This document shows, piece after piece, positions 10,098 through 60,274 of a stretch of DNA of 64,000 nucleotides. Made by a program: the position numbers and the translations under genes. This stretch comes from Bacteroidota bacterium (GTDB lineage Bacteria; Bacteroidota; Bacteroidia; Chitinophagales; Chitinophagaceae), in assembly GCA_003175935.1 (NCBI GenBank), contig PSRI01000064.1, forward strand, positions 10,831 through 74,830, read 5' to 3'. The first letter of the stretch is position 1; each line of letters begins with the position of its first letter. Under the pieces are notes generated by a model. It saw nothing but the letters and a program-made list of their open reading frames with translations. It ran no database searches and was not told where the DNA came from.

Positions 10098-10105
10098 TGA
10101 TCATT

Positions 10106-12185: not shown

Positions 12186-12227
12186 GGTTTAAGTATTCAT
12201 CTCAGATAAAAATGTTCAACTCATCTC

Positions 12228-21510: not shown

Positions 21511-22361
21511 TTACCGGTTGAAATTATTGCTCGGGGCCACATAAGTTTTGTCAACGGCCGGCTTGGGTTGATAATTCAGAATATCGGTTCCCTGCTTAAC
21601 ATAAGGCTTATTGTTATTTTCAAAGAGGAACAATAGAGCGCCAATCGTTCGCATTTTCAATTCATCCGTCCTTTGTTCTTTAATCTCATCAAAATGATAT
21701 TCCGGGGCAGAGTTTGCGAAGGTCATTGTTAGCGTCATTGTAAAGGGCTTGCTCAATAAGAAGGTAGCAACCGGTGCAAACGACGGAAGTTTTTTGCCAA
21801 TATAGGGCAGCGCTTTTTTAACTAATACTTCTGCGATATCCTTGGCAACACCCAGATCATCTTTTTCCAAAAGATGACCCACTATCGAGGAACCCGGAGC
21901 AATATTCTCCACCATCGGCAGTTTCTTGGTTATTTCATTGTATTTATCTGCATATTCAATAACCGTGGTCGCTGTCTTGATGGCTTTCTTAATCTCATCA
22001 ATTTTTTCTTTATTACCCAGCAAACTATAATTGAAATCGTAGACTTCAGTATAAGTATCTGTAACTGTATTGGGATTGAAATCACGAGTACGCGTTTTGT
22101 TTGCACTAACCTTTACGATAAACTCACTTACAGTTTGCTCAATGATCTCCCTTTTTTCTTTGACAGTAAGTTCCCCACAAGTACCAAATTCTACAACGCT
22201 CATTGGTTCCTTCGGTCTTTTCAAGTCTTCCAGTTGCAACAATGAAAGGATTGCATTGACGGCATCATTGCGGGATTTCATCTGATCAAAAACGCTTACT
22301 GCTGTTTGCGGACAGTTAGTCGGCTTGGTTTCCGAGCTGGAGACCATGATCATTACTTTTT
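21511..22361 (-). other. Rhs-A C-terminal variable (toxin) tail, ~285 aa, family not recognised
   Basis: This is the sequence after the DIDGMEE core boundary. It is visibly more AT-rich than the shell region and I recognise no catalytic motif. Confidence 0.6.
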
Positions 22362-25300
22362 CTTCCATGCCATCAATATCGATAGCCATGATCGGTTTAT
22401 CCCCGGCAAATTGATAAGGCGTATACCAGGGATAGGCTTTTGCGAGAGGATCTGTGCTCAGGAATTTTCCTAAAACTGGATTATAGATCCTGAATCCGTA
22501 ATCGTATTCGGTGAGGCTGCTGGCATTCTTGTCCTTTTCCTTTCCATTAAATCCGTAACGGTAATCATTACCCGAAGTGAAATTGCGGCCCGGCATTATC
22601 ATACCAAATGGGTAATAGTCCGATGCCGTCATGATATCCGCCGCATATGAATCCACAGTCGTCCCCCCTGCGCTTATCTGCACACGGCGGTCACTCACTG
22701 TCACCAAAACATTGCCCAGGTGATTGCTTAACTCAAAGATTTTTTCCTCCCTTGTAAATACCGCTCTGATGGCCTTTCCGAAAGTTCCACCCAGGAATAA
22801 GGTGTCGGTGGTAGCGACATGTTGGAGAGACATACCTATCCGTTTACCACCATATATATCAATTTCACTCTGCACCAGCGATCCACCTGCAGGTTTAACA
22901 TAAACGCTCATGACATTGCCGGAAGCGTCGCGCACATAAATCGTGGTGTCTGCAGCAGTCTGTTTCATAATCCGATTGCCCAATTCATCATATACGTAGC
23001 GGATTACTGCCCCCGATTTGGTGATACTGCTGATCTTTCCTGCAACAGTCCAGCTGATATTGGTGATGCCTTCACTATTATCAACGATCAGGTTTCCCAT
23101 GGGATCATACTGATAGTTCGCGCCTGCCTGACCTTGTTTCAAATCATTATACAGCGGATAATTCCCCGCGCTGGCGTCCGCAGCCACATCTACTACTTTG
23201 TCGAGTTGATTGGTAGCAGGTTTATAGGTATACGTCAGATTATCCATCGCCGTTCGAGAAGCGTCTCCGTTTCTTGAATAAGAAAGAATATTTCCATTCG
23301 CATCATAGGCTACACGTTCCTGATAATCCGTCACTGACGCCGGAGTAAAAGTTCCTGCAGCAGGTACCAGGCCATTGTATACATCCATCGCCACCATCCT
23401 GTTCAACTGGTCATAATGATAATTATACAATTTTGTAGTGCCTAGTTTGGGAAGGTTCACACCCATAGCTGCGATATTTCCATTATACAACGGTGCAGCA
23501 TTAGCGCCTAAAGCAGCCATTATACTGGTCGTTTGAGGCGGCAGACCAATGGCCCGGTAATCATTTTTATAATAATTTAAACTGTAGCCAAACACGTCGG
23601 CAGCCACTGGAAATCCTTCGCTTGTGTCTGTGCCGTTTGTCAGCGTTCCCCCCATCGCAGGGTTCACACCTTTGATCCATCCCTGAAGAGTGTAGGCATA
23701 ATCGATACCCTGCAACCGCAATTGACCAAGATCATTGCGCGCTAACCAGCCATGCTTATAATAGGTATAATGTGCTTCACGCTCTGTAAATAATAGAAGC
23801 ATCACACTATCCCTTCCACTATAAACATCAGTCAGGCGGTTCTCCGCATCGTAGAGATATCGTTGGTAGTAAGCATCAGGTTGACCAGGCTGGTAAGACA
23901 TTGAATTTACTTTTCCACTAATCAGATCATAACAATAGGCAATCGTTTTGAAGCGGTCGTTGCCAAGATTCATTGCATTAATAACGCCTGCCCTGTTTCC
24001 AAAATCTTTAAGAACAGTATCGATGTTTCCATGAATATCATAATTGTAATACGTTGCACTGGCCGGATAAACATCAGCCGCATTATTAAATTGTTGGGTA
24101 TAGCTTACGCGACTGCGCACATTCGATTGACCCAAAGCCACTCCGTTAGTTGGACCGTAAGCTGTGTCGTAAACTGTGACTGTGATTTGAGATCTTGAAG
24201 CAGTTGCGTTAGTGAACCAGGTCAACAGATTCGCATCATTTTTAGCTGTTGCATCCGACATCGCAGTTCCTCCTGTAATTTGTCCAACCTGTGTCATTCT
24301 GCCAAGGGAGTCATACATCGTGTAGCTATAGACGTTACCCAAAACAGCCTGCTTTGCATTCTGACTTGCAACGATCCGTCCCAACCTGTCATACCATAAT
24401 TTCACGGTTCCTCCGTCTGGAGATTTTTGAATGATAATTTGATTAAGGCTGTTATAACAATAGCGCGTCACTAAACTGTGCGATGGCGTGAGTGTCAATC
24501 CGGCATTTTTGAAATTTTCAACACTGTCTATAAAGCTTTGTCGGTAGATCGGATTGACTCCCTTGGGAGAGACGGTCTTGACAAGATTCCCAGCCTGGTC
24601 ATAATAATAAAGAGTATAATGGTATTCTTTTACCGTATCCGTCACTTTGAAAATCTCTGCTGCCGATAAACATTTGGATACATAAGCTGCTTTAAAATCC
24701 GCTATGAGTTGTTGATTAATGGCATCGAACATGACCGCAGCTTTCACAGTTGCCCTGTTTCTGACCACCTGACAAGGCGCCTGCGCTTGCACGAGACCGG
24801 TAGTATCGTTCAACGGAATTGTATTCATACAAACTGACAATCCACTTCCCGTTCCTGTAATGCCACCGATGGGACAACCATAGGTATTAAATCTATCACT
24901 GTAGAATTGCCAGTTATGTTGAAGACCCGTTTTGTAGTTGACAAATTTTGCGAAGAGGTCATTATATGCCAGCACCGTATCATTGGTTATGGTTCCTGTA
25001 AATACAGGATGTCTTCCGAATATTGAAAAGAACGCTGTATCATAGCTTTTGAAGCTTGTGCAATTATAACAACTGTAACTACTATCACTGAATCCACAGG
25101 TAAGGTACTGCGGTAGTGGTTGCGGACTTACCAGGGGTGCGATGGAAAGTTGCTGACAGGTGGTAAAATAGCACATATGTGTACCTGTCTTGTCTGTACA
25201 AATTGCTGAATCCGGGTGGCAGCCATAATTAAAGGCCACATAACATTGCTGTAAGCCTGCGTACAATACTGCAGTAATCGTATCCTGATACATTGTGCGC

Positions 25301-28300
25301 AAATACTGATTAATACTAGGCAAAGAATAAGCATTATAACCAGCATTAGTTATTTTCTGTTGAAGGATGCTAAACTGGGAACAAGTGCAACTGTCAACAC
25401 CGGCCACATACTGTTTAGTCACCACTGGATTTTTGCCATATGGTTTTGGAAAGTCGACCACATAGGAATTACAAAATTGATCTCTCGGTATCAGCAAGCT
25501 GTCCAAGACTTTATTAATTACCTGTTCAAAGCTCGTATATGTATTACCACTGTAAGCCGGAGCTACTGTAGAAGAACCAAACGGATTTGCACCATCAGTT
25601 CCAAATGCGCATACCAAAGCCATTCTTGCTGTAATGGTGGCGATCACCGCTTCCCTGGTTGTCGAATCCGGAATTTTTGTAGCAAATGCAGGGCACTGTA
25701 GCAGCGTGAGTCTCCATCCATTAATATAGCTGTCGCAATGACTACTGTATTTAGTCACTGAATCTTTCAATCCAACAGTAGGATAGACTCCAGACTGGTT
25801 GGGATACCAGGTTGTAAACTGACTATTGCTGGCCTGCTGTACATTATCATACGGGAAATAAATCCGGTATCCCTGATTGATCAGGTTTCTATTGTCCAGC
25901 GTATCGGTGTGCAAACAAATATATCTGTTGACCATGTCTTCACGCGCCTGAGTATAAGAGCTCTTAAATAGATTCCAGGCTTGAAGTTGCATTGCAGCCG
26001 TCAATGGCACTGCACCTGTTCCGGGATTAATAGAAGTTCCAGTGACTACAAAGGTTTTCGGCATTGCGTTATAACAGGGAACCCTAGACGCAGAATCCGG
26101 ATAAGTTTTACAACCGAAAACATCACCATAAGCAATCTGCCACATGCTGAAACCACCCTGCCAGCTGGTATCGGTAAATTTTTTCATCGCATTTTTATCA
26201 GTTGTCGTAGAGACTACAGTGAAAAATGGATCAGAAGCATTGGGACTGAAAGCCAGGCTCACGGATTGGTTCACGCTATCCATAAAATTGTAGCTGTTTT
26301 GCAAATTGGCAACTGCGTAATTGAGTTTGGCAAATTCAGGATGATAAGGCAAGAGCGAACTTGCCCAAGAATTCACAAACTGCGATTCAAAATTTGCCCC
26401 GGTTACCCCTGTTAAAATGGAGGGCAATACTGTAGAATCAATCCTTCCATAAGCATCGTAATAAAAGTCTGCCACACCAGCCTGATTGCGCGGTGTTTTA
26501 TAGAAAGGTTGTGGATAAGAAGAACCGCTCAAAGAAAAAATATTGTACTTGTTATACATCGTTCCCGAGCCCACATCTTTAGCATATTGCCCACTATAGG
26601 GAGCCATATCTCCCAACATTTGCAAGCGTATATTGTCCAGCGTATGAGAGGTATTCATGTTAAGCGATTGACAAAAAGTGGAATCATTCACAAATTGATT
26701 TCGAATATCGTTGAGTTGTGAACTGTTCAGTTGACCGACAGTCAGGCCTAAGGTTGTGGCGTAATTGTTCAGGTAGGTAGTATAGGTTCCGAGAGTAGCC
26801 AGGCAACTGCTGCAAGTCAGTTGCGATGCAGCAATTCCACATCCGGATGCTGAGGAATCTGCAGCCGCCAGTGAATCAATTAGAAATTGCTGTGTCCTAC
26901 AGAGACCCACATTAATCGTATCATATTTCTGCAGGAATTTTGTAAGCGAGTCCTGATTAATGGTGAGTGTCTTGCGAACGTTGTAAGAACCCGGTGGAAG
27001 TAAGATTGCATTGGTCCAATTGATGGTGTCAATGCCAGCGAAATTGTAAACAAAAGCACTTGTATCACCACTTTCATCACTAATCGAAATCTGAAGATCA
27101 AATTTGCAGTTGTATGAAACCGTGCCCGAACAGGTGGGCATAGTGAGAATTTGTTTGGGAAGATTATATGTGAAACTGTAAAGTGTTTTATAAGGAACCA
27201 GAATGGTATTGACCGACTCGATCGAATTGCCTTTTAGAACGTTCGAACCTTTGTCAATTAAATTGCGCGTCATCACTTTTCCCGCCTGATTTTTATATAG
27301 CGAAGTATCTGCAATATTCAGTGCCTGTAATGCATTAGGTCCCTGCCCGGCCAGTGCCGTTGCTACCTTTCGTCCGTGCATGTCTGTATAGCTCACACTC
27401 ATTTGCCCGTTGGCATCCAGGATCATATTTTTAAAATAGTGTGTATAGTTGCCGACCTCTGTACCAAAGAGTGCGTCAAGCTCTTCCTGGGCCGCTGTTC
27501 CATAATAGTAACGAGTAGCATGTGCACTTCCGAGCTGCAACGAATCGCCCACCCCGCCCTGCATCAGGATTCTGCCAGTGCCGTCCGGAGTAAAGCGCGT
27601 TGCCGCATAGGCGTAACCGTTAGCGTCCGGAATGTTTTTATTAAAAGCAGTAGTCGATTTCTCGGGGTTCGCACCACTGAAGTAGAGACTTGCTCCACGC
27701 ATAGTATCCAAAGGAGATGTTGCATATTTACCTGAGGTACTTGTGGTAAAATCAAAATAATCGAGGGGATTGGTGTTATCGGGCTGGGTGTTAAACTTAT
27801 TGAAGTTTTTGGTATACGCAATAATGTTTTTCATTCCGGGTGCAGGCAATACCTGGATCGCTGCCCTTCCTTGCGCATCATAAAAGCTTTCCGCAACAAT
27901 GGTGGTCTGAGTATAGTTATCCTTAGTCACGGTCTGTCGCGAGCGTAGAGAGCCATCATAATACTGGATTATCGTTTTGCGCTTGCCCTCTTCTGCAAAT
28001 GCAGTATGCATCTGCCAGTTCAAACTATCATTGTGTCCGTTAAATGCAAAAGTTTGTACCCCGGACCAGGGGCCATCACTCCTGCTACCGGATGGCATAA
28101 TACTCACCCCTCTGACTCTGAAAAATAATTTCCCAATTCCAGCATAGACTAACGGTATAGCGTAACTTCCAGCAGCAGCACCCCCGGGAATATCAATTCT
28201 GGAAGCACCACTCTTGAACAACAGGGCTGTGTCAAAAACGCTTCCATTGATATAAGTACCTGCCAATTCGTTTTCCAGCCATGTCCACTCAAGTTGCGTT

Positions 28301-30516
28301 GCATTGTTATTGGTATGAATCGGATGAACCCAGTTTACAGATAGCGCATCGGGTACTGTTCCACCGGATGGAGTCGTATAACTCAGCACCGGTTTTTTGT
28401 TGTCCGCCAAAGCGTAAAATCTGGTACCCATTAATGAATTCGTCAGCAATAAAACCTGCTTGGTATCAAAAGAGACAGAATTTACAGTAGTTGGTGCATT
28501 AACGCGTAGCACAGTCACCCGGGTAAACTCGGCATTATTAAAATTGAGATAATGAATCGCATTATATTTATTACCGGCATTCTTTGTATACGTTACTGTT
28601 AGTTGTGTAGAATCTACCTGGAAAATATCGGAAGCTGAGTGACCATATTCTATTTTCACCACAACATATGCCGTGAAATCCCCCGGAATGAATTTATTAG
28701 TTTCTTCAATCACTCGCAAAGCGATCACATTTCGAATGGTGTGCGCCTGAGAATACAAAGTGTCCTGGGTAAACTGAGTGGTCTTCACTGTATTTTGAAC
28801 CAGGGAGATCGTATCAGTAATAATGGGGTCATCAATTCCTTTACCAAGTTTCATAATCTGGGAAGACAGTGGGATAACAGTCATGCCTAACTGCTGCGAT
28901 GAAGTGCCGCAGGCATTGGTTAGCGTGTATGTGATCGTGGCCGTACCTGTTGCCACGCCGGTAATCACACCATTGGCATCCGTTTTGGCAATTCCTGCAT
29001 TGTTGCTGCTCCAGGTGCCGCCTCCCACTGCATCAACAAGCTGGGTCGTGGAGTTTAACACTACATTGGTATTACCCGTGATGGCTGCAGCATTCGGACT
29101 ATTGAGGGTGACAATCGCCACATTATTGCTGTTGGGTGAAAAGCCGTAAGTAGTGTATGAAACGGCATAGTAAGTACCTGCAACCGTTGTGGCGTAAGTT
29201 GTGCCCGTTGCTAAGAGTGTATTACTTGCATTGTACCATCTATAGCTGCCGCTGCCTCCCGATGCTGTGAGCGTTGCCGTAGCGCCATTACACAATGTTG
29301 TGGCATTGCTACTAATTGAAGGAGCAGAAGGAATGGTAATACTGACCACATTGCTATTAGCTGTATTGCCTTGCGAACTTACAGCCACATAATATAAAGT
29401 CGTAGCGGTAATCACGCCGGTAGTATACGTTGACGTTGTTACACCGCTGAGTAGAGTATAAGTGCTTCCTCCATTCGTGGAGTAATACCAGGCATAAGTA
29501 TAGGTACCATCTCCTCCGCTGGGTGAAACACTCAAACTATTGATCGAGCCACTACCACTTGGAGTGGTGTTGGTGACGCTCAATACCCCCGATGGAAGCG
29601 TAGTCACCGTAACAGTTGCGGTATTACTCGTGACAGTGGCTGAATTGCTGGTGACATTGAGTCGATACCAGGTTGAAGTAGTCATGACACCAGGACTGTA
29701 AGTAGAAGCCACCGCTCCGGAAATATTCGTCCAATTGCCTCCGCCGGGTGGAGAACTTTGCCATTGATAGGTGTAAGTTCCATTACCTCCGCTCACACTT
29801 GAAGTCAGCTGGGCAGAGCTCTGGCCGCTGATCAAATTCTGCGTGGCAGGACTGATGGTATTGGTGATTTGCGGATAAACATTCACCCATACGGCATTGG
29901 AATAAGCAGTTTGGCCAGACGTATTTTCTAAAACCCTTCTTTGATAATAAGTCAGACTGGTCAGGGAACCCGAAGTATAGTTTTGGGTATTGCTCGAGGG
30001 TATATCAGTATAATTGGTGCCATCGGGTGAAGTCATCCAGGTATAAGTATAACTGGGTGACGTAGCTCCCCCTGTAGGTAAGGTGCCGGTAATGGTAGCA
30101 GTGTTGCCATAATTAATAGTTTGTGATTGCGGAGAAAGCGATCCTGGGGTCAATTGTGGCGTTGCAGTAATGTTAATTGTCTTACTCCCCAGGCTAATCA
30201 CAATATTCAAACTTCCAGTAGGTGAATTCCAGGTCACACTCACGGGAATTGAATACAGAACATTACTACATACACCAGACTTCACTGTATTCTGTGTGCC
30301 CGTCACTACTCCACCAGTAATTGTCCATGTGTAATTTCCATTATAAACGACCGTACCCGAACCATTATACAGAACGTTGTAAGTATACGAAGTTCCCTGC
30401 GTACAGGCAGTCGGACCAGATATGCTTACCTGGCTCCATCCATTACTAACGGTCAGGCATAGGGCAAGAATAGCGATGCCATAGATTCTAAAAATTTGCC
30501 GTTTTGTTTGTAGCAT
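21511..30516 (-). CDS. Rhs-A: giant secreted polymorphic toxin (Ig-like repeats + Big_2-like domain + DUF6443-like region + Cys-rich insert + YD/RHS shell + variable C-terminal tail)
   Basis: ~3000-aa ORF. The ATG at 30516 gives signal peptide MLQTKRQIFRIYGIAILALCLTVSNGWSQ. Ig-like repeats carry GG.G.Y.Y.W. A Big_2-like segment spans ~28873-29091. YD repeats (YxYDxxGRL type) run from ~24630. The RHS core end is RIYNPVLGKFLSTDPLAKAYPWYTPYQFAGDKPIMAIDIDGMEE at ~22362-22500. Confidence 0.9.
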   Translation of the reverse strand: MLQTKRQIFRIYGIAILALCLTVSNGWSQVSISGPTACTQGTSYTYNVLYNGSGTVVYNGNYTWTITGGVVTGTQNTVKSGVCSNVLYSIPVSVTWNSPTGSLNIVISLGSKTINITATPQLTPGSLSPQSQTINYGNTATITGTLPTGGATSPSYTYTWMTSPDGTNYTDIPSSNTQNYTSGSLTSLTYYQRRVLENTSGQTAYSNAVWVNVYPQITNTISPATQNLISGQSSAQLTSSVSGGNGTYTYQWQSSPPGGGNWTNISGAVASTYSPGVMTTSTWYRLNVTSNSATVTSNTATVTVTTLPSGVLSVTNTTPSGSGSINSLSVSPSGGDGTYTYAWYYSTNGGSTYTLLSGVTTSTYTTGVITATTLYYVAVSSQGNTANSNVVSITIPSAPSISSNATTLCNGATATLTASGGSGSYRWYNASNTLLATGTTYATTVAGTYYAVSYTTYGFSPNSNNVAIVTLNSPNAAAITGNTNVVLNSTTQLVDAVGGGTWSSNNAGIAKTDANGVITGVATGTATITYTLTNACGTSSQQLGMTVIPLSSQIMKLGKGIDDPIITDTISLVQNTVKTTQFTQDTLYSQAHTIRNVIALRVIEETNKFIPGDFTAYVVVKIEYGHSASDIFQVDSTQLTVTYTKNAGNKYNAIHYLNFNNAEFTRVTVLRVNAPTTVNSVSFDTKQVLLLTNSLMGTRFYALADNKKPVLSYTTPSGGTVPDALSVNWVHPIHTNNNATQLEWTWLENELAGTYINGSVFDTALLFKSGASRIDIPGGAAAGSYAIPLVYAGIGKLFFRVRGVSIMPSGSRSDGPWSGVQTFAFNGHNDSLNWQMHTAFAEEGKRKTIIQYYDGSLRSRQTVTKDNYTQTTIVAESFYDAQGRAAIQVLPAPGMKNIIAYTKNFNKFNTQPDNTNPLDYFDFTTSTSGKYATSPLDTMRGASLYFSGANPEKSTTAFNKNIPDANGYAYAATRFTPDGTGRILMQGGVGDSLQLGSAHATRYYYGTAAQEELDALFGTEVGNYTHYFKNMILDANGQMSVSYTDMHGRKVATALAGQGPNALQALNIADTSLYKNQAGKVMTRNLIDKGSNVLKGNSIESVNTILVPYKTLYSFTYNLPKQILTMPTCSGTVSYNCKFDLQISISDESGDTSAFVYNFAGIDTINWTNAILLPPGSYNVRKTLTINQDSLTKFLQKYDTINVGLCRTQQFLIDSLAAADSSASGCGIAASQLTCSSCLATLGTYTTYLNNYATTLGLTVGQLNSSQLNDIRNQFVNDSTFCQSLNMNTSHTLDNIRLQMLGDMAPYSGQYAKDVGSGTMYNKYNIFSLSGSSYPQPFYKTPRNQAGVADFYYDAYGRIDSTVLPSILTGVTGANFESQFVNSWASSLLPYHPEFAKLNYAVANLQNSYNFMDSVNQSVSLAFSPNASDPFFTVVSTTTDKNAMKKFTDTSWQGGFSMWQIAYGDVFGCKTYPDSASRVPCYNAMPKTFVVTGTSINPGTGAVPLTAAMQLQAWNLFKSSYTQAREDMVNRYICLHTDTLDNRNLINQGYRIYFPYDNVQQASNSQFTTWYPNQSGVYPTVGLKDSVTKYSSHCDSYINGWRLTLLQCPAFATKIPDSTTREAVIATITARMALVCAFGTDGANPFGSSTVAPAYSGNTYTSFEQVINKVLDSLLIPRDQFCNSYVVDFPKPYGKNPVVTKQYVAGVDSCTCSQFSILQQKITNAGYNAYSLPSINQYLRTMYQDTITAVLYAGLQQCYVAFNYGCHPDSAICTDKTGTHMCYFTTCQQLSIAPLVSPQPLPQYLTCGFSDSSYSCYNCTSFKSYDTAFFSIFGRHPVFTGTITNDTVLAYNDLFAKFVNYKTGLQHNWQFYSDRFNTYGCPIGGITGTGSGLSVCMNTIPLNDTTGLVQAQAPCQVVRNRATVKAAVMFDAINQQLIADFKAAYVSKCLSAAEIFKVTDTVKEYHYTLYYYDQAGNLVKTVSPKGVNPIYRQSFIDSVENFKNAGLTLTPSHSLVTRYCYNSLNQIIIQKSPDGGTVKLWYDRLGRIVASQNAKQAVLGNVYSYTMYDSLGRMTQVGQITGGTAMSDATAKNDANLLTWFTNATASRSQITVTVYDTAYGPTNGVALGQSNVRSRVSYTQQFNNAADVYPASATYYNYDIHGNIDTVLKDFGNRAGVINAMNLGNDRFKTIAYCYDLISGKVNSMSYQPGQPDAYYQRYLYDAENRLTDVYSGRDSVMLLLFTEREAHYTYYKHGWLARNDLGQLRLQGIDYAYTLQGWIKGVNPAMGGTLTNGTDTSEGFPVAADVFGYSLNYYKNDYRAIGLPPQTTSIMAALGANAAPLYNGNIAAMGVNLPKLGTTKLYNYHYDQLNRMVAMDVYNGLVPAAGTFTPASVTDYQERVAYDANGNILSYSRNGDASRTAMDNLTYTYKPATNQLDKVVDVAADASAGNYPLYNDLKQGQAGANYQYDPMGNLIVDNSEGITNISWTVAGKISSITKSGAVIRYVYDELGNRIMKQTAADTTIYVRDASGNVMSVYVKPAGGSLVQSEIDIYGGKRIGMSLQHVATTDTLFLGGTFGKAIRAVFTREEKIFELSNHLGNVLVTVSDRRVQISAGGTTVDSYAADIMTASDYYPFGMIMPGRNFTSGNDYRYGFNGKEKDKNASSLTEYDYGFRIYNPVLGKFLSTDPLAKAYPWYTPYQFAGDKPIMAIDIDGMEEKVMIMVSSSETKPTNCPQTAVSVFDQMKSRNDAVNAILSLLQLEDLKRPKEPMSVVEFGTCGELTVKEKREIIEQTVSEFIVKVSANKTRTRDFNPNTVTDTYTEVYDFNYSLLGNKEKIDEIKKAIKTATTVIEYADKYNEITKKLPMVENIAPGSSIVGHLLEKDDLGVAKDIAEVLVKKALPYIGKKLPSFAPVATFLLSKPFTMTLTMTFANSAPEYHFDEIKEQRTDELKMRTIGALLFLFENNNKPYVKQGTDILNYQPKPAVDKTYVAPSNNFNR

Positions 30517-30676
30517 GGTCAATCATTCTTTTTAGGTTGATCTTCTCCCAGCTGGATCTCTCTGCTTCGGAAATGGGGTTCTTTATTCTGGAAATATTCC
30601 CTGGAAACGGATTTTTTTACTTTAGTCTATCCTCGACAAGCTTGCGCCAAAAAAATGCAATGCTTTCGTTTTTGCT

Positions 30677-39547: not shown

Positions 39548-41932
39548 TTAAAATGTTTTGAAATAAGTTAATCGCCCAACTTTGCTATCCACCAATTGTC
39601 GGTTGTATCCGGGAAGAAAGCCTTTGTCCATCATAAACTGTATTTCACCCAGCTTCGGAAACCGAAAACTGAGATTGCCAGAATAACCCCACTGAATGTT
39701 GTGATAAAAACTATTGGTGATATGTTTGATGCCACCACCAATACTCAAAAACTTATTGATGGTGAACTGATCATTATTTTCGATGGTAACTATCCTGTAG
39801 TCTGCATTATCACTTACTGATCCATTTAGTGTGAAAGACATATTGCGGACAAAGGCGGTCTGACTTACCAAAAAATTCCTGGAGTTGAAATAGGCAAATC
39901 CTGAATCACTGGCCTGGTTATAAAACTGACTGTATACGAAATAAGTGGAGAACTGTATTTTAAATAGCTGGTAGTGATGCGATAGGTTTCCGATCAGAGT
40001 ATAATACCTGGTTTCGGAATAACTGTCAGCACCTACTTTGGTGAGCTGATAACTCGGATAATATCCCAGAGAAAGCGAAGGCCATTTTTTTAAACGCAGC
40101 ATTGCCTGTATACTCGCAAGAACAGAAGAGCTTTTATATGTTGCAGTTGCAAAAGGATTATCATAATCATTTTGCTGAACAGACGCAATGATGGTTAATT
40201 TTCTCTTAAAGAAAGGCTGCTCTACCCGTCCCATCCACTTCATTTGTGCTGCGCCGGTAGTAAATGTGCTGTAAGACTGAAAATTAGCACCCAGGTACCG
40301 GAAATTGCCATCGAAGCGCGTATGGGTTTTAGGCAAATAAGAAGTTAACCTGATGGAATAAGCTTCATTACTGTGGTCACCGAAACGAGCAAAAGATGAA
40401 AACCAGTTTTTGGTATGCAGACTGTCCAGGCTGTAATAGGGAATAGTGGATTTGGCAATTTCACCGGCAACAAAAGTATTTTTGGTGAGACGGTATTGTC
40501 CTTCAATAGCAATTCCCGCGATATGGTATTCTGGGATTTGCAGATTCGGTTGCACCGCTACGGCCGAATTATAAAATTGCCTCTTACCCGTATAATAGGA
40601 GAAATATAAATGGTTACCATTCTTCATGCCTTTCCCTACTCTGACTAATGCTACATATTGATGCGGGCTGGAATAACTCGGTGCTAAATAATCGCGGAAA
40701 CGATAATCTACTTTTCCTAATGCAACGGCATAATAAAACCCAGGATTATACTCAGCCTGCAATCCGGTAATGCTTACATTTTTCACGGACAGTTCAGAAT
40801 AGTTCGCGATGCTTCTACCTATACTGAATGACTGAATTGAATAGAGTGTCTTATATCCTTTTGGAAGTACACTGTCCGGAACATGCAATTCCTGCAAACG
40901 CTGACTGAGTGCCTTGGGATCTTTGACCTGGTCAAGATCCGATTTCCATGTATTTAATTTTCCATGTTCAAATGATTCAGCATTCTTCAATAATTTTTCA
41001 GCATGTTCCAATGATATGAGTAGACTGTCTATTTTTTTTTCAGTTGATTCCAGTGTATCTTTTGCCGAAGTGATTTTTCGAATGGGATTGTTCGCATTTT
41101 TCTTTAGACTATCTGGTTGTACAGCGTAATTCAAATCCTTTTTCAATTTGTTTTCTCCAACTGTCATCCAGTCGTTCTGCAATATGTCAGTATTCAAAAC
41201 CGTTGGCTGATTTTGCGGGCGCTGTGAAGAATAAAGTTTGCGTTCACGCTCCTCCACCTGTCTCTGAATTAAGCCAGGGCCTTCGGTAAATTGCTTAAGC
41301 GAAGCGATTGCGTTTTGATACTGCGCAATAAGTTGGCGGAGTGAATCCATTTCTCCCAATTGATTACGTAAGTAATGCTCTACGGCTTCGCTCACCCGCT
41401 TTTTAACGATACGGGCAAAATCAGACTGGATATATTGAAAATTGAGATCTGTATATTTTCTGAGCCATGGTGAATTACTAAAATGGGTGGTGAGAAATAA
41501 TCTAAATGGATATTTTTCTTTATAAAGAAAATTCAGACGTGTCTGTAGCGTATGCTGGTAAATATTATTTTCCGTAAATGGCGTGTCTACGCGAGATCGG
41601 TAGTTGACATCATACATTATATTTCCAGAAACCTGTAGTAGCCTGACATGATTTTCAGATGGTGTACCCGGAGAAAGTGGTTGCCGCTTCAAAGAAATAA
41701 TAGGTAACAGCAAAGGGTACACGAAACTATAACCTTTACAAATATTTCTAACAGAAAATGTTTTTGCACCGGAAAATTCTAAAGAGGTGTCCACCCAAAG
41801 CATCTGGAGTGAATCATTATTTCTGAGTGACCTGGAACTGTTGGAAGGTAATTCACCCTGAGAACGACCCTGACCATTCGTCTTATAGCCAATAACTGTA
41901 CAAAGACATAATATGGCTATTAGTTTAAGCAA
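39548..41932 (-). CDS. outer-membrane beta-barrel protein with central coiled-coil region (locus A)
   Basis: 794-aa ORF with an N-terminal signal. It has a charged heptad-like stretch (~residues 180-330) and alternating aromatic/polar beta-strand patterns. The C-terminus is ...GRLTYFKTF (terminal Phe, typical of OMP barrels). Confidence 0.7.
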   Translation of the reverse strand: MLKLIAILCLCTVIGYKTNGQGRSQGELPSNSSRSLRNNDSLQMLWVDTSLEFSGAKTFSVRNICKGYSFVYPLLLPIISLKRQPLSPGTPSENHVRLLQVSGNIMYDVNYRSRVDTPFTENNIYQHTLQTRLNFLYKEKYPFRLFLTTHFSNSPWLRKYTDLNFQYIQSDFARIVKKRVSEAVEHYLRNQLGEMDSLRQLIAQYQNAIASLKQFTEGPGLIQRQVEERERKLYSSQRPQNQPTVLNTDILQNDWMTVGENKLKKDLNYAVQPDSLKKNANNPIRKITSAKDTLESTEKKIDSLLISLEHAEKLLKNAESFEHGKLNTWKSDLDQVKDPKALSQRLQELHVPDSVLPKGYKTLYSIQSFSIGRSIANYSELSVKNVSITGLQAEYNPGFYYAVALGKVDYRFRDYLAPSYSSPHQYVALVRVGKGMKNGNHLYFSYYTGKRQFYNSAVAVQPNLQIPEYHIAGIAIEGQYRLTKNTFVAGEIAKSTIPYYSLDSLHTKNWFSSFARFGDHSNEAYSIRLTSYLPKTHTRFDGNFRYLGANFQSYSTFTTGAAQMKWMGRVEQPFFKRKLTIIASVQQNDYDNPFATATYKSSSVLASIQAMLRLKKWPSLSLGYYPSYQLTKVGADSYSETRYYTLIGNLSHHYQLFKIQFSTYFVYSQFYNQASDSGFAYFNSRNFLVSQTAFVRNMSFTLNGSVSDNADYRIVTIENNDQFTINKFLSIGGGIKHITNSFYHNIQWGYSGNLSFRFPKLGEIQFMMDKGFLPGYNRQLVDSKVGRLTYFKTF

Positions 41933-44014: not shown

Positions 44015-44440
44015 CTATCTATTTAATTTGATTTTTTGCAGAATGTTTTCTTTACAACCAAAGTCAATCTTCTTAGTAAATGAATTCCCTCCTTTTCTTT
44101 TTACCATAATTTCAATTTGATTTTTGGGCTTATAAATGGCGTCGTCCACTATTATTGATAAATAGGAATTAGATGTGTCATTTACAAGATTTAAGGTTAT
44201 GAGTTTGGCCGAATCGATATTTTTAATTATAACTGTTGGATAAGAATGTTGCATTGAATCAAAATATTTCGCTATGACAACTCCGTTTAGCTCAAGTTTA
44301 CTGAATTCTAAGTATTCATTACATGCACCTTCTTCCATTGACGGCAGCGCCAGATATATGTATAGGAAAAACAGAGAAACTACAAGAATCCCTATTATAA
44401 ATTTCAATTTTCTATATGGAAGTTTGATCAAATAACTCAA
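44015..44440 (-). CDS. small membrane-anchored hypothetical protein (possible immunity protein)
   Basis: 141-aa ORF with an N-terminal TM helix (FIIGILVVSLFFLYIYLALP). Confidence 0.6.
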   Translation of the reverse strand: MSYLIKLPYRKLKFIIGILVVSLFFLYIYLALPSMEEGACNEYLEFSKLELNGVVIAKYFDSMQHSYPTVIIKNIDSAKLITLNLVNDTSNSYLSIIVDDAIYKPKNQIEIMVKRKGGNSFTKKIDFGCKENILQKIKLNR

Positions 44441-44462
44441 GACAACTCTAAAAATTCTAGTA

Positions 44463-44804: not shown

Positions 44805-44813
44805 ATTTAATTT

Positions 44814-45287: not shown

Positions 45288-45321
45288 GACATAATTTTAT
45301 TTAAAGAGATTCAAAAGATTA

Positions 45322-50040: not shown

Positions 50041-50706
50041 TTAAGGATTTATTCTAAGTTTATAAATTACATCTCCCGTATTTATTTGAATGGATTCTCC
50101 ATTTGCAAACGATTTATAAAATTTCACAAATGTACCGTCACTCAATTTATATAAAGATTGACCAACTTCAGTCGCGTTTTGTGACACTTGTGTTTCTAAT
50201 GCCGCATAATCCGCAGTTGCTTCTCCATGTACTTCGCCATGTTTAAGCATCCCTTCTTCAAACTTCAAATCTTCTAGTTGTCCCATTAAATCTTCGGCTG
50301 ATCCTATGGTCGCATCGGCTGCACCAGTTGCAAGCTCTTCCTCTGAAACTGAGTTAACTTCTTCTCCTTCAATAGCAACATCCAACAATTCTCCTCCTAC
50401 TTCAGACAAGGCAATAATTAGAAAGGTTTTGTACAAATGTGCATCACTCTTCCAATATCCACTCATTTTCCTTCTGTATCGAATAGCTTCGGCGGATGTA
50501 GCATTGTTTAATTGCTTTCTTGCATTATCAGATAACAATTTATTTTGAAATGCCCATCTGCGTATAGCGTCAGGTGAATGCTGGCGAGCTAATTCGAAGT
50601 CAACCCATGCGCTTATGGTCTCGTAATTTGCGCGATTTAGCACATCAGTGGGGCTTCCTTTTTTAGGAACTTTTATTACAATTGGCGACAGAGTAATTGT
50701 GTCTGT
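50041..50706 (-). other. Rhs-B C-terminal variable (toxin) tail, ~221 aa, family not recognised
   Basis: This is the sequence after DPLGLKA. It is unrelated to the tails of Rhs-A and of the orphan cassette. Confidence 0.6.
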
Positions 50707-53700
50707 CGCCTTAAGTCCCAAAGGATCATTAAATCTGATTGGATTGTTGTTTGCAAATGAATAAGCTGAAATCGAGTTAATAATGTCAGCCAATCTGTCG
50801 ATTTGCACAAATCTTCCAATCTGAGGGTCATATGATCTAAATTTAGCGTCATACATGTCGAATCCAGACCCATCAGAAAATTCGTTGCTCTGCAATTCAT
50901 TGCCATTATTGAATCCCAATAATATTCTTGACTTCCCAAAAACCAAGGATTTTGCTGAAATTCCCGCAATTGATAGTCCAAAAGGATAGTAGTGATTCTC
51001 CTCCAATAATTTACCTCTGTGATGATTCACCTGGAAATTCTCAAAGTAAACATCCATGGGGCTTTCGTTTGAAAGGTATACATATAAATAACCATTGGTG
51101 CCCATCACATGTCCCAATTCAATCAGGGAATCTTTAGTATCCGCGCTTGACGAAATTTGCCTTGTACCGCTACTGCTATTTACCAAATTAAACTGTTCAT
51201 CAAATAATATCCAGTTTAAATATGCCTTGGGTTTCCCAGCATTTTGATTCGGATCGGTATTTTTCAAATCATCAATATTGGGATACCCGCTGGTATTGAA
51301 TGTCGCTAAATTCCGATCTCCAATGCTGAAGTGACCTGAAGGATCTAATGCCGTGGAAGTACCGCCAAATGCGACAATCAAACCTGCAACCATTTCTGAA
51401 ACAATATGGCTGTTACTGTTATTTTGAGTGGAGGCCTGGTAGAACACATTTGTTTTCATATCCACCGTATCCGTAGCCATTACTTTTAGCAAAATGCTTG
51501 GACCGATTCTTCGAGCAGGATCAGAATAATTCAGTTTCACCATATAATGGTTGCTCGTATCTGAATCATATCCGTTAGGTTTGGCTCCTTGAATGGAAGA
51601 AAGAGGGTTCGGATTATAATACAGTTGCTCGGTAGCACGATTTACAGTCTCCATCGTTAGAGCAGGATATTTGTCTGTCTGACTTTCCTCCGTCAATACC
51701 ATACGCACGTTACCTAAATGATCTTTGATGAAGTAATCCCACGAGTAGTGAACTGGATTTGTTCCCTGCGCCAATACATATCTCAATCTTCCTTCTTCAT
51801 GCAAAATGATTTGCAGGGTATCATTATCATAAATGTAAGCTCCTGTGTAACTAGTCGTAGTTGTCTTCACTCCAGAAGTGCTGTCCACCACAATCTTCTT
51901 TAATTTATTTCCTGCAGCATCGTATACATAGTTAATCGTTCCTTTTCCGTTTATTGAAATCTGTTGAGGCAGATTCAGGAAATTGTAACTGATGTTTGAA
52001 ATTTTCTTGTTATTATCTAGCACTAAATTGCCATTGCCATCATAGACATAATCATCTCCGGAATTCAAGCCATCTTTAAAGTCTCCCAATGGTGCAGTGA
52101 TCCCACTAGCATCAGCGACCTTCGCAAGTTTATTTGTCCAAGCACCTGAACCTTGATAAGAATAGGTCAAGCGATCTATGTATGCAGAAGTATTTAATAA
52201 GAGCCCCTTTTGATTCATGGACAGAATATTCCCATTGGCATCGTAGCTTAAACTATCCACACTAAAATTTACATTCGCATCAGTCGCATAGCCGCCACCG
52301 CTATTTTGGGTGTAATCCGCTTTCAGAATTCTGTTCGTGTTGTCATATCCAAATCCATAGGCCCGTCCGATGGGATTGCCACGGCTCTTCCAGGCGGTTC
52401 CAGCAATATTTCCGTTTAGCTGGTTCAGTGTAAATCCAAAATCGTATGCCAGATCCATTCCGAAGAAATTACTCGTGCTGACACCCGTTACATAGTCGCG
52501 GTTGATTCCTTTCAACCATCCGCGAATATTATAATCATAGGCCAGTGACTCGACCGGTTGATTGCCCAGTGATTTATTCTTCAAGCGGCCTAAAACATCA
52601 TAAGTGTTGGTAGCAATTGCTTCAGGAGATGTAGAACCATTCAGATACTTATTAACTGTTGTCACCCGCCCTTGGGCGTCATAGTTAAATGCGGTAACCA
52701 GTTTATTATATTTGACCGGAGCTACAGAAGAAATGATACTATGTGTAGCGCAGGTACTCAATGCTTTTCCTGCAAAATCATACTGCGTTGTAGTCGTATC
52801 CCAGGCTCCCGTCAGGTTTAGTGATTGTTGTTGAATGGGCCTGTTGAATTCATCATAGAAATTAATTCCGAGTTCATATAAATTATTGTTTAGTGGATCC
52901 AGCACTTTGATTCTTGAACCCGTTTGCATGCCACGAGTTTGCGCACTTGAAGAAGGTGTTTGCGTATAGGCGCCTGACAATATAACTGGCAAATCGTTGG
53001 TGTTATTAAAAGCAGTTGTGAAACTGTGATTGATATTGATATCGCTCCTGGATTGCCAGTTTTGATCATCATAAAAACTTTCCGTCAAGATCGAATATGT
53101 ACCACTTAACGTTGGATAGCTGATGCTGGATTGAGAAGATGTCTGATGGGTTGCGCGATCAGAACCATTGTTCCAAAGAGTAGTGCTGATGGTTCGATTC
53201 AGGCTATCAAATGTGGAAACCAACCATTGACTGTTTTGCCTCAGGACAGAATCTCTTGACATAACCATTCTGTCTCTTGCGTCATATACCATTTCCACAA
53301 CTCCTGCACCCGGAACTTTTTTGGTAATCAACCTTCCTTCCTGGTCGTAATTGTAAGAGAAGCATAATTCATCCCCGACGCCTGCACTCAAAGTCCAAGC
53401 ATTCTGATTTGCATATTGAACAGCTTTGGGCGGAATGACATAGCGTAGCCGGTCCAAATTATCATACACATAATAGGTAGCTAACCAACCTGAATAACCG
53501 TTAAACAAAGTATCAGACAACTGTACTTTTTTCAAAATGGTTTTTCCGTCTTTATCTTTGAATTCAATGACTTTATTATCATGTTCGTCCGTGGTGATAA
53601 TCTCCGCGAGCGCTCCCGCTACATAACTTGATGAAGTTTGTGGAATATCTGAAATTAAGTTTCCAATTGTCCAAATTCGAACTGAATCCAGATCGCCATT

Positions 53701-56700
53701 AAAAGTGTAATCTGTTCTTGCCCCGATATTATTCCCCGTCCAGCTATTGCCCGGTGCCGTTGCTTTGATGATCCGATTTTCAGGTGATGCTTCATAAATG
53801 GAATTACTATAATAAAATCCTTCTTTATTATTGAATAAAGAATTATAAAAGCCAGGTTGCCTGCTATTGGCATCAGTTCTGAAATTCCCGCTTGATGCCG
53901 AATCCGTGTAAGGCAGATATTGCTGTGCCACCCGACCCAGTATATCATAATTTTTTACAGTGATTAAGTCAGCGCTGCTTGGGTTTGCCTGTTTGGCTAC
54001 TGTCTGTACATCTCTTCCCAAATCATCAAAATAAGTGGTCGATTGCATGGCATCACTGGGCGAAGTCAAAGCTTTTGCTGCACTTACAGTGTTGATGGCA
54101 TTCTTATTGACATCCCAACTTCTGATGAAATTAATTTTGGAATTCGAAATACTTAAAAGTGTTACCGGTGCAATTGACGCAGGAGTAATTCCAGGATCGG
54201 CTACACTTTGCGTAGTTGTAGTTGGCAAATTCGTTCCTGTAGAACCTGGTCTCACTTTCACTCTCACTACATTTAGAAATCCCGACACGAAAGAATACCC
54301 GTTTTGTGGCCCATTGGTCACATACCTTCTATAATAAGTGGTCCTTGATAAGGCACTGGAACTGTAATTCTGAGAAGTTCCGCCAGAAATATTTTTCCAG
54401 TTTACTTCATCATCTGATTGCTGCCACTGGTATGAATAGGACGCAACTGTTCCACCATTGGCTTGTGTTCCCGAAAGTGAGACACTTTGACCGGAATTGA
54501 TCACTAAAGTATTTGGAGAAATGGTTCCTGGATCAAAGTGTACAATCTTTACCAGAACTTGCAGCGTATTAGAATACCGCGAGGTCACAGCATTCGTTGC
54601 TTTCCTTCGGTAAAATACACTGGTGGCAAGTGGGTCTGTCGGCTGAAAATCGATTCCAGTCCCACTATTGGTAAGTGGATAAAAGTCCAAATTGTTGAGT
54701 GAATATTCCCACTGATATGTATAAACGCTATCCAGCCCTCCGGTTGGCAAACTTCCAGTCATTACTGCTGGAACCGTATTCCAACCAATGGAATCTGTAT
54801 TCGATAAACTGATTGTACCCGGATTAAAGTAAGGGAATACTAAAACATAACTGGTATCCGTAAACGCAGAATCAGATCCGCAAATCACCTTCCGTCGGTA
54901 ATAACCACTAATTGTTGTTGGATCAACTATACTGCGACTCGTTTGGCCTGAGATCGGTAAATAATGGATGGAATCCGTAGACTTTTGCCACTGGTAAGTA
55001 AAAGAACCTCCACAAGTTCCACCTGTAGCTGAGTCCGGACTTGAATCTATCGTAATAGAACTACCATTTTCCAGAGTTTGGTAAGGTTTTCCAATAATGC
55101 CTGGTGAAAGAGGAGAATTATGGACATTCACTTTGAGTGTCACAAAAACACCACCGCTGTCCAAAGTCACAGTCTGTTGACCAATGCCCGTCCAATGGAT
55201 GTATGCTTCAGGAACGTGTGACGCACCGCCTACAACTGTTCCGCCACTGGTTGCACTCCAATTATAAATGCTGGAATTGCCGGTGTTATAGTGATATAGA
55301 GCGGTTTGTCCAACCCAGCAATCTGTAGGTCCTGCAAGTCGACTGATTTCCGTATCTATTGTATCAATGATACTATATGCTGTTTCACCACCCACAGAGA
55401 TTTTCATCCGGTAATAGGTCTTGGTAGCAGGATTGAAATAGCCTGGATTGTATGTCAGTAATATGGCACCTGTAATATCTGACCATGATGTTCCGTTGGC
55501 CGATTGTTGCCATTGATAAGCGTAGCATCCCTCTCCAGGGCATGCACCGCCGGAGGCAAGCCCGCATTTCAAATTAATGGGCATGTTGGTATAGGAGTTG
55601 GCTAACTGGTAGGTTGGCCAGGTATTTCCAGAAACCAAAGGCGGGAAATGCACTGAAATCGTATTGGTATAAACGGTTTCTGACCTGTTAACAGTTTTCA
55701 AACGGTAATAGGTAGCCGAAGTAAGATTCCCCGGACTCAGTGTCAAACTTCCTGCGGTACCTGTGTTGGTCCAATTCACATTATCAGTGGACTGTTGCCA
55801 TTGATAGGCATAACTACTAGTAATACCTCCGCTGGAGGTTGTTGCTGTAAGGGTGCCAGGATCGCCATTGTAAGCTATCGTTACGTTGGATGGCGATGCG
55901 GTGCCAGCAGACAAATGCGGGTGTACAATCACCTGCACATCATTTGAGTTCGCTGTCTGGGTGGAGCAGGTGGCTACACGACGAAAATAAGTTGATGTCG
56001 TTAAAGGGCCTGGCGTATAACTGGCACTCGTGGCGCCACTTATGGGTCCAGTAAAGTTTGTGCCATCCGTAGAAGAATACCATTTGTAAGTATAAGATCC
56101 ACTACATCCACCACCCGATGCGGCAGTTCCGGAAATGGTAGCTGGCTGCACACTTACGAAAGTATCCTGCGTAGCCGGTGAAAGCGTTCCGCCTAATAAC
56201 TGCGGGTATACGTTAGCGGTATAGACATTAGTATAGGCAGTCACTCCATTGCAGCTTACGGCTCTCCTGTAATAAGTTGTTGAAGTAAGCGAAGGAGGCT
56301 GATAGTTTTGTCCTGTGGCTGTTGAAATATTGGTAAAAGTCGAATTGTCCGGGCTTGACTGCCACTGATAAGCATAAGACCCACCACAATTTCCACCCGT
56401 GGCAACTGATGCCGTAAGTTGTGCGGGTGCGGTACCATACAATAAATTGGCTGTAGTTGGAGATATGGTTAAGCTACCTCCTGTTAACGGTGGAATTGGA
56501 CTGATTGTCACATTCAGAGTGGCTACAACAACACCTGTATTGTCCTTGATCTTTACAAACCCACTTGTAACATCTGGGAACCAAGTAACATCAACACTGC
56601 TATTTGTCGCAGAGGAAGCGGAACCAGATCCAATGAACCAGGTATAGTTCGATGGCTTTGATGGTGATACGGTATAGGTATATCGATTTGTCTCAATAAC

Positions 56701-60250: not shown

Positions 60251-60274
60251 AGATGAATATGCAGTCAAATAATT

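Follow-up and report, generated by a model that had tools for sequence, protein, structure and literature searches.

Polymorphic toxins of the RHS type that start with a signal peptide are already listed for Bacteroidetes in the survey of Zhang et al. (2012; PMC3482391), where they are tabulated under 'T2SS' (type II secretion system), a label that, on our reading of the table, in effect denotes a toxin starting with a signal peptide. As far as that table goes, therefore, the toxin class is known and the machinery linked to it here is not. For Sec-dependent toxins with a YD-repeat shell no delivery machinery is known, according to a 2026 study of teneurin-like toxins (PMC13018210). Here we analyzed a stretch of 64,000 nucleotides from a Chitinophagaceae bacterium (contig PSRI01000064.1; hereafter, the window), in which a prediction made from the sequence alone (the original prediction) had singled out locus A, a block of genes for an outer-membrane protein (OMP), a 364-aa protein, a 2292-aa protein (the giant), a 294-aa protein and a large Rhs toxin, together with a related locus B. 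We propose that the five genes of locus A make up an envelope module dedicated to a polymorphic Rhs toxin exported by Sec, a reading to which, including the mechanism put forward below, we assign a probability of about 0.5, and which makes the module a strong candidate for an undescribed way to export or display Rhs toxins.

The Rhs effectors that use type VI secretion (T6SS; RhsA, Tse5 and RhsP) are similar to the module in the Rhs shell, which is predicted for the module, the autoproteolysis motif of the core, the polymorphic C-terminus, the immunity genes and the orphan modules, and also in a small dedicated gene immediately before rhs, for an Eag/EagR chaperone there and for the LolA3-like protein in locus A. 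The locus A Rhs differs from them in that it has a Sec signal in place of PAAR/prePAAR and adds Ig-like repeats, DUF6443 and a Cys-rich insert. The open reading frames (ORFs) of the window gave no T6SS, PAAR/VgrG, TcA, TpsB/POTRA, usher or secretin family match, and no match to DUF1795, in agreement with the original prediction that the 64 kb hold no known secretion machinery. Given the Sec signals and the absence of PAAR and VgrG, the pathway would not use T6SS. A route through type IX secretion (T9SS) is also unlikely, because T9SS reads a C-terminal domain, while the end of the Rhs is its toxin and that of the giant a conserved YD motif; no T9SS sorting domain (TIGR04183/PF18962/PF13585) was found at the C-terminus of either protein, nor at that of any other ORF in the 64 kb.

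The TcB-TcC cocoon of Tc toxins has a comparable Rhs core with a variable toxin C-terminus, and in both cases a very large protein ending in YD repeats is encoded just upstream; but the locus A giant fails the SpvB/TcB tests, the window has no TcA, Sec signals stand on all components, and the outer-membrane barrel, the LolA3-like and the beta-sandwich proteins are additional. The 'TcdB/TcaC' class of Zhang et al. (PMC3482391), as defined in their table, requires SpvB and an integrin-like propeller in the toxin; these are not in locus A, and linked genes for an OMP, a giant and LolA3 are not described for the class in the table. Contact-dependent growth inhibition by two-partner secretion (CDI/TPS; CdiB-CdiA-CdiI) offers a further parallel, with an outer-membrane barrel gene in first position, giant Sec-dependent surface proteins, a variable receptor-binding region, a toxin and its immunity protein, whereas locus A is without POTRA/ShlB transporter, TPS domain and FHA repeats, and its barrel has about 26 predicted strands instead of 16. 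Teneurin-like proteins and WapA of B. subtilis are likewise YD-shell toxins with signal peptides, presumed to be displayed on the surface. The bacterial teneurin-like toxins are reported in Myxococcota, Firmicutes and other phyla, Bacteroidota being absent from the main text of PMC13018210, and they carry TTR, FN-plug and NHL domains without linked OMP, giant and LolA3 genes, whereas family searches found TTR, FN-plug and the NHL propeller in neither Rhs of the window. Finally, chaperone-usher systems and other large barrels (FimD/PapC, LptD) place a monomeric outer-membrane barrel of 24-26 strands beside genes for periplasmic beta-sandwich or carrier proteins; usher (PF00577), PapD-like and pilin families were not found in the window, the resemblance being one of generic fold only, and a helical hairpin of about 200 residues is unique to the locus A barrel.

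Locus A consists of five minus-strand ORFs (window positions 21511-41932; Table 1) with small gaps between neighbours, as originally described: 10 nt, 28 nt, a 26-nt overlap and 154 nt, the overlap becoming a 10-nt gap if gene 4 begins at its internal ATG, which is the likely start. Signal peptides were judged by reading the N-terminal sequences, including those of related loci, and all five N-termini of locus A showed a basic followed by a hydrophobic stretch of signal peptidase I type, which sustains the view that all five products carry Sec-type signals. The Rhs N-termini across loci likewise look like substrates of signal peptidase I.

In order to follow the block through GTDB, one genome per species was scanned, in which at least 528 stretches proved to code for giant relatives; 78 loci were taken for analysis; linkage was counted by ORF-by-ORF BLAST and iterative hidden Markov model (HMM) searches, the denominators being the loci with enough flanking DNA. 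The 364-aa gene was present in 66 of the 67 loci with enough upstream DNA, accompanied by the OMP gene in 56 of the 67. On the other side, gene 4 was found in 53/56 and the Rhs gene in 55/56 loci, and all five genes stood in the order OMP, 364-aa, giant, gene 4, Rhs in 44 of the 53 loci with both flanks, which answers the co-occurrence check across Bacteroidota genomes that had been suggested with the original prediction. Starting from the Rhs side, with the DUF6443 region and metagenome contigs with upstream DNA, the giant was found upstream in 48 of 49 cases and gene 4 in 46; starting from the OMP side, both new homologs whose loci were checked (2/2) were followed by a gene of about 365 aa and the start of a giant, and the one with enough downstream DNA (L167) has the complete five-gene order. 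The block is far beyond chance, and its linkage is nearly obligate whichever gene starts the search. Such linkage strongly suggests a dedicated export or display function and upholds the claim that the genes form a functional unit around a Sec-type Rhs toxin.

The module is widespread in Chitinophagaceae (Niastella, Terrimonas, Puia, Ferruginibacter, Filimonas, Chitinophaga, Agriterribacter, Paraflavitalea, Sediminibacterium, Ilyomonas) and occurs also in other Bacteroidota, namely in metagenome-assembled genomes (MAGs) of Saprospiraceae, Flavobacteriales, Bacteroidales and Chryseosolibacter; altogether it is found in hundreds of soil and freshwater Bacteroidota, and some genomes hold two copies (L018/L072, L024/L049, L026/L053). 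Carriers that can be cultured include Terrimonas ferruginea DSM 30193, Niastella, Filimonas zeae and Chitinophaga niastensis.

Some variation of the layout was also observed. In four distant loci (L061, L063, L065 and L077, positions ~8000-9900) the 364-aa gene and the giant are separated by one more ORF, of 170-205 aa, and the OMP slot is taken by an ORF of about 780 aa that is too diverged for the HMM. One of them, L065 (CALRLQ020000002.1), holds the whole module in its Bacteroidota form, although the MAG to which its 538-kb contig is assigned bears the name 'Rhizobium sp. Q54'; an error of binning or labelling is more probable here than a transfer to Alphaproteobacteria.

By its domains, gene 5 is a genuine Rhs polymorphic toxin, in which a conserved predicted shell and a conserved core precede a C-terminal domain that is hypervariable. 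The model TIGR03696 (Rhs_assc_core) matched over its full length (1-76 of 76) with 46.2 bits (cutoff 32.5), and a search against the PDB retrieved two solved T6SS Rhs shells, 8h8a and 8cp6, with E-values of about 2e-5. The HMMs of the repeats themselves matched weakly (PF05593, E 0.62; TIGR01643, E 0.32), and YD motifs can be seen on reading the protein. DUF6443, one of the families proposed for searching together with the original prediction, was matched in the Rhs of both loci; it is common to A-type and B-type Rhs and occurs in the Rhs neighbours of L001, L082, L083, L164 and L165. The N-terminal region gave a Big_2 match (aa 475-535, E 9e-4) and Ig/Fn3-like matches in the PDB, its repeats being 35% identical to those of the locus B Rhs. 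The Cys-rich insert, which comes after the first YD repeats and before the main shell, is kept in A-type orthologs (it aligns with that of Niastella), has no counterpart in the locus B Rhs and matches no family; its cysteines would fit an oxidising, extracytoplasmic location.

Compared with its Niastella ortholog, the Rhs is 51% identical over aa 467-2727, to the end of ...DKPIMAIDIDGMEE, and unrelated beyond. From what known Rhs cores do, this motif would be expected to mark an autoproteolytic boundary. When the C-termini of the window copy and of 42 complete metagenome relatives were compared by BLAST, the 43 sequences fell into 41 groups, the window copy being a singleton, and neither the C-terminal domain nor the immunity candidates matched a Pfam family above cutoff. 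In most of the metagenome relatives a small ORF on the same strand abuts the Rhs stop, and several of them have orphan modules of a core with its C-terminal domain. These observations bear on whether the targets are bacterial at all. The C-terminal domain might instead be an effector or signal directed at eukaryotes (fungi, protists, nematodes), or serve teneurin-like recognition, as could be argued from the window copy of locus A, which has no recognisable immunity gene and whose C-terminal domain matches no Pfam toxin family, and from the PA14/CBM modules in relatives of the giant, which bind glycans that could be eukaryotic, the hosts being soil Chitinophagaceae. However, the abutting small ORFs and orphan core modules in most relatives are the signature of a kin toxin-immunity array, and together with the extreme diversity of the C-termini they make a non-antibacterial role improbable.

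The giant had no sequence match in Pfam, NCBIfam or the PDB, and a profile of 61 sequences found no PDB chain. Its family counts more than 2,900 homologs, with relatives in Chitinophagaceae, and an exhaustive HMMER search with aa 1-1200 gave 5,014, 3,936 and 2,546 clusters at 50% identity for E<=1e-3, E<=1e-10 and E<=1e-30, respectively. AlphaFold2 modelled aa 1-1200 with a predicted local distance difference test score (pLDDT) of 64 overall and about 80 for aa 600-1200; Foldseek with this model returned nothing at E<=1e-3 in the PDB and nothing meaningful among viral structures. The N motif (aa 86-170) is the element best conserved in the locus B partner (BLASTP 42% identity over 66 aa, E 8e-9), and its end is conserved in the alignment as ASWVGLGW.LN.G.I.R..RG.PDD. 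This motif resembles the start of TcB/SpvB, a likeness that we take to be a lead and not a test.

The original prediction had named the giant 'TcB/SpvB-N-like', an identity that we rejected on the basis of Pfam, PDB profiles and Foldseek against PDB and viral structures. The models proposed for this check, SpvB (PF03534) and TcdB_toxin_midN/midC, did not match the window giant at E<=10, nor did FG-GAP and RHS_repeat, and the same families were absent at E<=0.05 from 20 relatives reaching down to 32% identity. Profiles of the full-length giant and of the N motif retrieved no TcB or SpvB chain from the PDB at E<=10, and no Tc, Rhs or teneurin chain was among the Foldseek matches listed for aa 1-1200, none of which reached E<=1e-3. 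These searches speak against a Tc-like arrangement, in which the giant as TcB and the Rhs as TcC would build a binary cocoon released by lysis or in vesicles, without a TcA injector. Such a cocoon would suit the gene order, the giant being encoded just upstream of the Rhs, the YD repeats of the giant could extend the Rhs beta-spiral, and its N motif recalls the start of TcB/SpvB; but Tc subunits do not carry the Sec signals found here throughout, the window has no TcA, and the Rhs appears to own a complete shell, so that we consider this arrangement very unlikely.

At its other end the giant carries what its sequence marks as genuine YD repeats: with a profile of the locus B partner family, the segment equivalent to the C-terminal motif matched the YD repeats of Tse5 (8cp6_B, E 2.5e-4) and of 7q97. 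The core of the giant aligned with that of the locus B partner with an hhalign probability of 97.3% (E 2.7e-11, 240 columns); an alignment of the two proteins was also obtained at their N and C motifs. The strand region following the N motif has no counterpart in the partner; its strands were modelled by AlphaFold2 at low to medium confidence, and Foldseek found only a weak likeness (E 4e-3 to 0.5, probability <=0.7) to secretins and small transmembrane barrels, so that this part may form a membrane-embedded or pore-like beta-structure. In the variable region, 20 relatives showed PA14 (2 proteins, best E 5.3e-14), CBM_4_9 (4) and Por_Secre_tail-like domains (2), while the window giant gave there only a weak internal match to TIGR04183 (aa 2023-2074, E 0.048). 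The first ~30 codons of the giant encode a hydrophobic helix, conserved as MIxxLAxxYxKxIA...FYxS..LP down to 32% overall identity. This segment is far more conserved than an ordinary signal peptide; possibly it stays on the protein as an anchor, or acts as a signal specific to the pathway.

The OMP (gene 1) also gave no sequence match in Pfam, NCBIfam or the PDB, and homologs were collected by iterative HMM in 61 loci. Its AlphaFold2 model, built from 54 homologs, has a mean pLDDT of 78.5, with barrel strands mostly at about 90 or higher, and a predicted template modelling score (pTM) of 0.66. In the model, the signal peptide is followed by four strands (aa 99-168), the hairpin, and 22 further strands (aa 366-793), about 26 in total, up to an aromatic C-terminal end (...TYFKTF). 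Foldseek returned 229 PDB matches at E<=1e-3, the best 50 of the 229 being outer-membrane barrels; TonB-dependent transporters were best by E (~1e-7), and the ushers FimD/PapC by TM-score (TMq 0.30-0.36, TMt <=0.45). Gene 1 is thus modelled as a large outer-membrane beta-barrel of about 26 strands with a long helical hairpin, and the barrel with a coiled coil that had been proposed for the first gene is borne out by the model. Since the hairpin is preceded by an even number of strands, it probably faces the periplasm; a profile search retrieved only coiled-coil noise from the PDB.

A barrel of this kind could be an anchor rather than a conduit. Together with the 364-aa protein, the giant and the LolA3-like protein, the OMP would then build or tether a large surface structure that displays the Rhs, while the outer membrane would be crossed by the beta-barrel assembly machinery (BAM), T9SS or T2SS encoded elsewhere. 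A barrel with a periplasmic coiled coil recalls the SlpA complex that tethers the outer membrane (Foldseek 8agd, 7zgx); lectin-type and Ig-like modules are present in the system, DUF5977, known from the stalks of fibrillar adhesins (10.1101/2020.12.07.414375), occurs in some partners of the B type, and the B-type loci do without the OMP. The missing T9SS sorting domain at the Rhs and giant C-termini argues against it, and the near-obligate linkage of five genes favours dedicated over general machinery, which leaves a role in adhesion or anchoring alone unlikely.

With gene 4 the search results went beyond the original prediction, which had called it an accessory gene. The window copy scored 27 bits (E 2.4e-6) against the LolA3 model NF053579, whose curated cutoff is 83 bits; however, 23 of 24 positional orthologs matched LolA3_fam (best E 1.4e-42), 13 of the 24 at E<=1e-21, and the slot holds an ORF in 58 of 61 loci, all 58 being joined to the window copy by iterative HMM. 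By family assignment, gene 4 is a probable, divergent member of the LolA3 family of periplasmic carrier-like proteins. LolA3 was named in Flavobacterium johnsoniae (Fjoh_0605), where it is an orphan periplasmic carrier whose deletion left gliding and T9SS unaffected; its authors proposed that its role is confined to certain species and did not mention the genomic context (PMC11885536). Gene 4 and its positional orthologs match the NCBIfam model of LolA3, but the F. johnsoniae protein was described as an orphan, whereas its counterpart in locus A is the fourth gene of an Rhs module. Lipoprotein forms of the Rhs or of the giant were rejected as clients, as their N-termini show no conserved lipobox Cys across loci, and an acyl chain on either protein is therefore an unlikely cargo. 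In six loci (L015, L026, L047, L118, L128 and L152) there is no LolA3-like gene between giant and Rhs, and the giant abuts the Rhs; in L152 a LolA3-like ORF is found upstream of the giant instead. These loci are natural variants, useful for probing the requirement for LolA3.

The window copy of gene 2 matched no family, whereas DUF928 was found in 7 of 29 relatives (best E 1.5e-6) together with scattered weak Ig-like/fn3 matches; because of these, gene 2 probably encodes a secreted or periplasmic protein of tandem beta-sandwich (Ig-like) domains. Family profiles of the 364-aa and the LolA3-like proteins found nothing significant among PDB sequences. All five proteins being directed to the periplasm, the Rhs might also stay in that compartment and be delivered by outer-membrane vesicles or by lysis, with the other four loading, stabilising or targeting the vesicles. 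LolA-like carriers and outer-membrane proteins are typical vesicle cargo, and a folded Rhs shell exceeds a 26-strand barrel; the Ig-like repeats of the Rhs and the lectin modules of the giant fit surface exposure better, and we give vesicle loading little credence.

Locus B had been claimed to repeat the core architecture of locus A. This is right for the partner, a compact homolog of the giant, and for the Rhs, DUF6443 being present in both toxins, but not for the 482-aa protein, which was rejected as a homolog of the 794-aa OMP (BLASTP E 0.56; nothing by iterative HMM); the features of its sequence suggest that it may be a barrel. This protein is kept in only a subclade of the B-type loci: orthologs precede the partner, on its upstream side, in L164 and L165 (61% and 36% identity, respectively), and unrelated genes take its place in L082 and L083. 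Locus B was also found to lack counterparts of both the 364-aa protein and LolA3. The partner family gave about 2,000 hits, some of them named 'YD repeat-containing protein' and some with PF05593 or PF19404, and the pair of partner and DUF6443-Rhs recurs in Chitinophaga nivalis and in three metagenome loci. As the B-type loci are reduced, the universal core would be this pair, and locus A its elaborated five-gene form. In Chitinophaga nivalis (L082, 22656-24374) two genes for thiol-activated cytolysins (PF01289) were observed about 4 kb downstream of the B-type pair.

Table 1. Positions of the genes and features of loci A and B in the 64-kb window.
Feature	Position	Strand	Description
Locus A, gene 1 (OMP)	39548-41932	-	794 aa
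Gene 1, helical coiled-coil hairpin	40838..41428	-	aa 169-365; AlphaFold2 helices 169-237 and 283-365
Locus A, gene 2	38443-39537	-	364 aa
Locus A, gene 3 (giant)	31536-38414	-	2292 aa
Giant, N motif	37905..38159	-	aa 86-170, ...FTGDFSYNIPL...ASWVGLGWNLNPGNISRNMRGVPDDF
Giant, strand region	36915..37907	-	aa 170-500; ~13 Gly/Ser-rich amphipathic beta-strands of 10-16 residues
Giant, core	35403..36245	-	aa 724-1004; homologous to aa 257-507 of the locus B partner
Giant, variable region	31995..32717	-	~aa 1900-2140; alignment consensus lost
Giant, C-terminal YD-repeat motif	31605..31751	-	aa 2222-2270; common to the locus B partner (BLASTP E 5e-5)
Locus A, gene 4 (LolA3-like)	30677-31561	-	294 aa from GTG; 282 aa from ATG at 31525
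Locus A, gene 5 (Rhs)	21511-30522	-	3003 aa
Rhs, Ig-like repeat region	28843..30435	-	~aa 30-560, N-terminal
Rhs, DUF6443 domain	27706..27993	-	aa 844-939; 28.2 bits (cutoff 27.8)
Rhs, Cys-rich insert	24670..27132	-	aa 1131-1951, ~830 aa; 28 of 37 Cys
Rhs, Rhs-associated core	22366..22617	-	aa 2636-2719; ends ...DKPIMAIDIDGMEE
Rhs, polymorphic C-terminal domain	21514..22341	-	aa 2728-3003; presumed toxin
Locus B, 482-aa protein	60275..61723	-	signal peptide, long coiled coil, beta-rich C-terminus ...FRVGYNF
Locus B, partner	56888..60268	-	1126 aa; compact homolog of the giant
Locus B, Rhs	50041..56832	-	2263 aa; DUF6443 E 3e-37
Locus B, candidate immunity gene	49520-50038		172 aa; after the locus B Rhs

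From the linkage and the predicted location of the products we infer a role of the module in export or delivery, for which we propose the following mechanism. All five proteins would reach the periplasm via Sec, where the LolA3-like and the 364-aa beta-sandwich protein, encoded beside the Rhs and the giant, respectively, would serve hydrophobic or unfolded segments as chaperones or adaptors. In the outer membrane, the conduit or anchor would be the barrel, whose hairpin would extend into the periplasm. The giant would be exposed on the surface, bind glycans of the target cell with its variable module, and hold the Rhs through its C-terminal YD repeats and/or the N motif, possibly against DUF6443; the Rhs core would then cleave itself and the C-terminal toxin be released into the neighbouring cell. 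An envelope location is suggested by the signal peptides, the barrel model, the likely LolA3 membership of gene 4 and the 28-Cys insert of the Rhs, a surface and target-binding role of the giant by the PA14 and CBM_4_9 modules in the variable region of its relatives, and a contact between giant and Rhs by the YD repeat of the giant and by the partner/DUF6443-Rhs pair persisting in B-type loci.

Several points weigh against this proposal. A monomeric barrel of 26 strands cannot let a folded Rhs shell through, and export would therefore need unfolded threading or an oligomeric pore. The B-type loci keep partner and Rhs without an A-type OMP, a 364-aa protein or LolA3, so these three components are either not universally needed or act in trans. 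The deletion of lolA3 was without phenotype in the assays used, competition not being among them (PMC11885536). The window copy of locus A has no obvious immunity gene, a gene for an S26-like lipoprotein coming next, and the model of the giant is of moderate quality (pLDDT 64) and covers half of the protein. In a more specific form of the proposal, this would be a pathway through the outer membrane specific to Bacteroidota, without T6SS or T9SS, in which the barrel is the translocon, LolA3 the chaperone and the giant the receptor-binding or docking subunit, its amphipathic beta-hairpin region possibly contributing to a pore; we advance this assignment of parts only tentatively. That the module is a new outer-membrane pathway for export or delivery has, nonetheless, a substantial chance.

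The surroundings of the two loci were inspected as well. Upstream of the OMP gene a divergent gene (42320-42979, plus strand) encodes a LuxR-type response regulator (Response_reg and GerE), which was rejected as a module component, being present in only 3 of 54 loci (L004, L167 and a weaker relative in L023), and which probably reflects local regulation. Promoter and terminator scans gave uninformative counts at chance level; the sigma-70 consensus is not applicable to Bacteroidota. After the Rhs, in the slot where an immunity gene would be expected, a minus-strand gene (20128-21408) encodes a lipoprotein-like protein of 426 aa, in which a signal-peptidase-I (S26) domain (TIGR02227, 73.8 bits) precedes a pair of predicted transmembrane helices and a C-terminal domain of small size. 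In its ...CRRVVGIPGD motif, Arg presumably stands where the catalytic Lys would be, taking E. coli LepB as reference. We rejected this gene as a conserved component, since an unrelated gene occupies its place in Niastella. The stretch downstream of locus B (44015-48737, minus strand) contains an orphan Rhs fragment (45322-47541) of 739 aa, with the core at aa 463-553 and a C-terminal domain of 186 aa, ringed by ORFs of 113-167 aa, one of them with DUF1493; its gene content is typical of spare toxin-immunity cassettes arranged in an array. The left part of the window (1509-13391) holds a glycan-degradation cluster, without relation to the Rhs module, that encodes a GH9 protein with CelD_N, GH10, a sugar transporter of the major facilitator superfamily, GH43, an esterase, a 3-keto-disaccharide hydrolase and an FMN dehydrogenase.

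In the literature, no mention of DUF6443 was found, DUF5977 appeared only in the survey of fibrillar adhesins, and no mention of the neighbours of Fjoh_0605 was found; searches for Rhs with Bacteroidota, T9SS, LolA or the outer membrane yielded no description of the module. The analysis places a large uncharacterised family of soil Bacteroidota, that of the giant with its thousands of clusters at 50% identity, in a toxin system. It also gives LolA3 a genomic context and hence a hypothesis, and if it is indeed the chaperone of a translocon formed by the barrel, LolA3 would gain a function. For the question of how Sec-dependent toxins with Rhs/YD shells cross the outer membrane, the module supplies testable candidates, namely the barrel, the LolA-type carrier and the partner of about 2,300 aa, whose genes are nearly obligately linked to that of the toxin in hundreds of species, of which several can be cultured.

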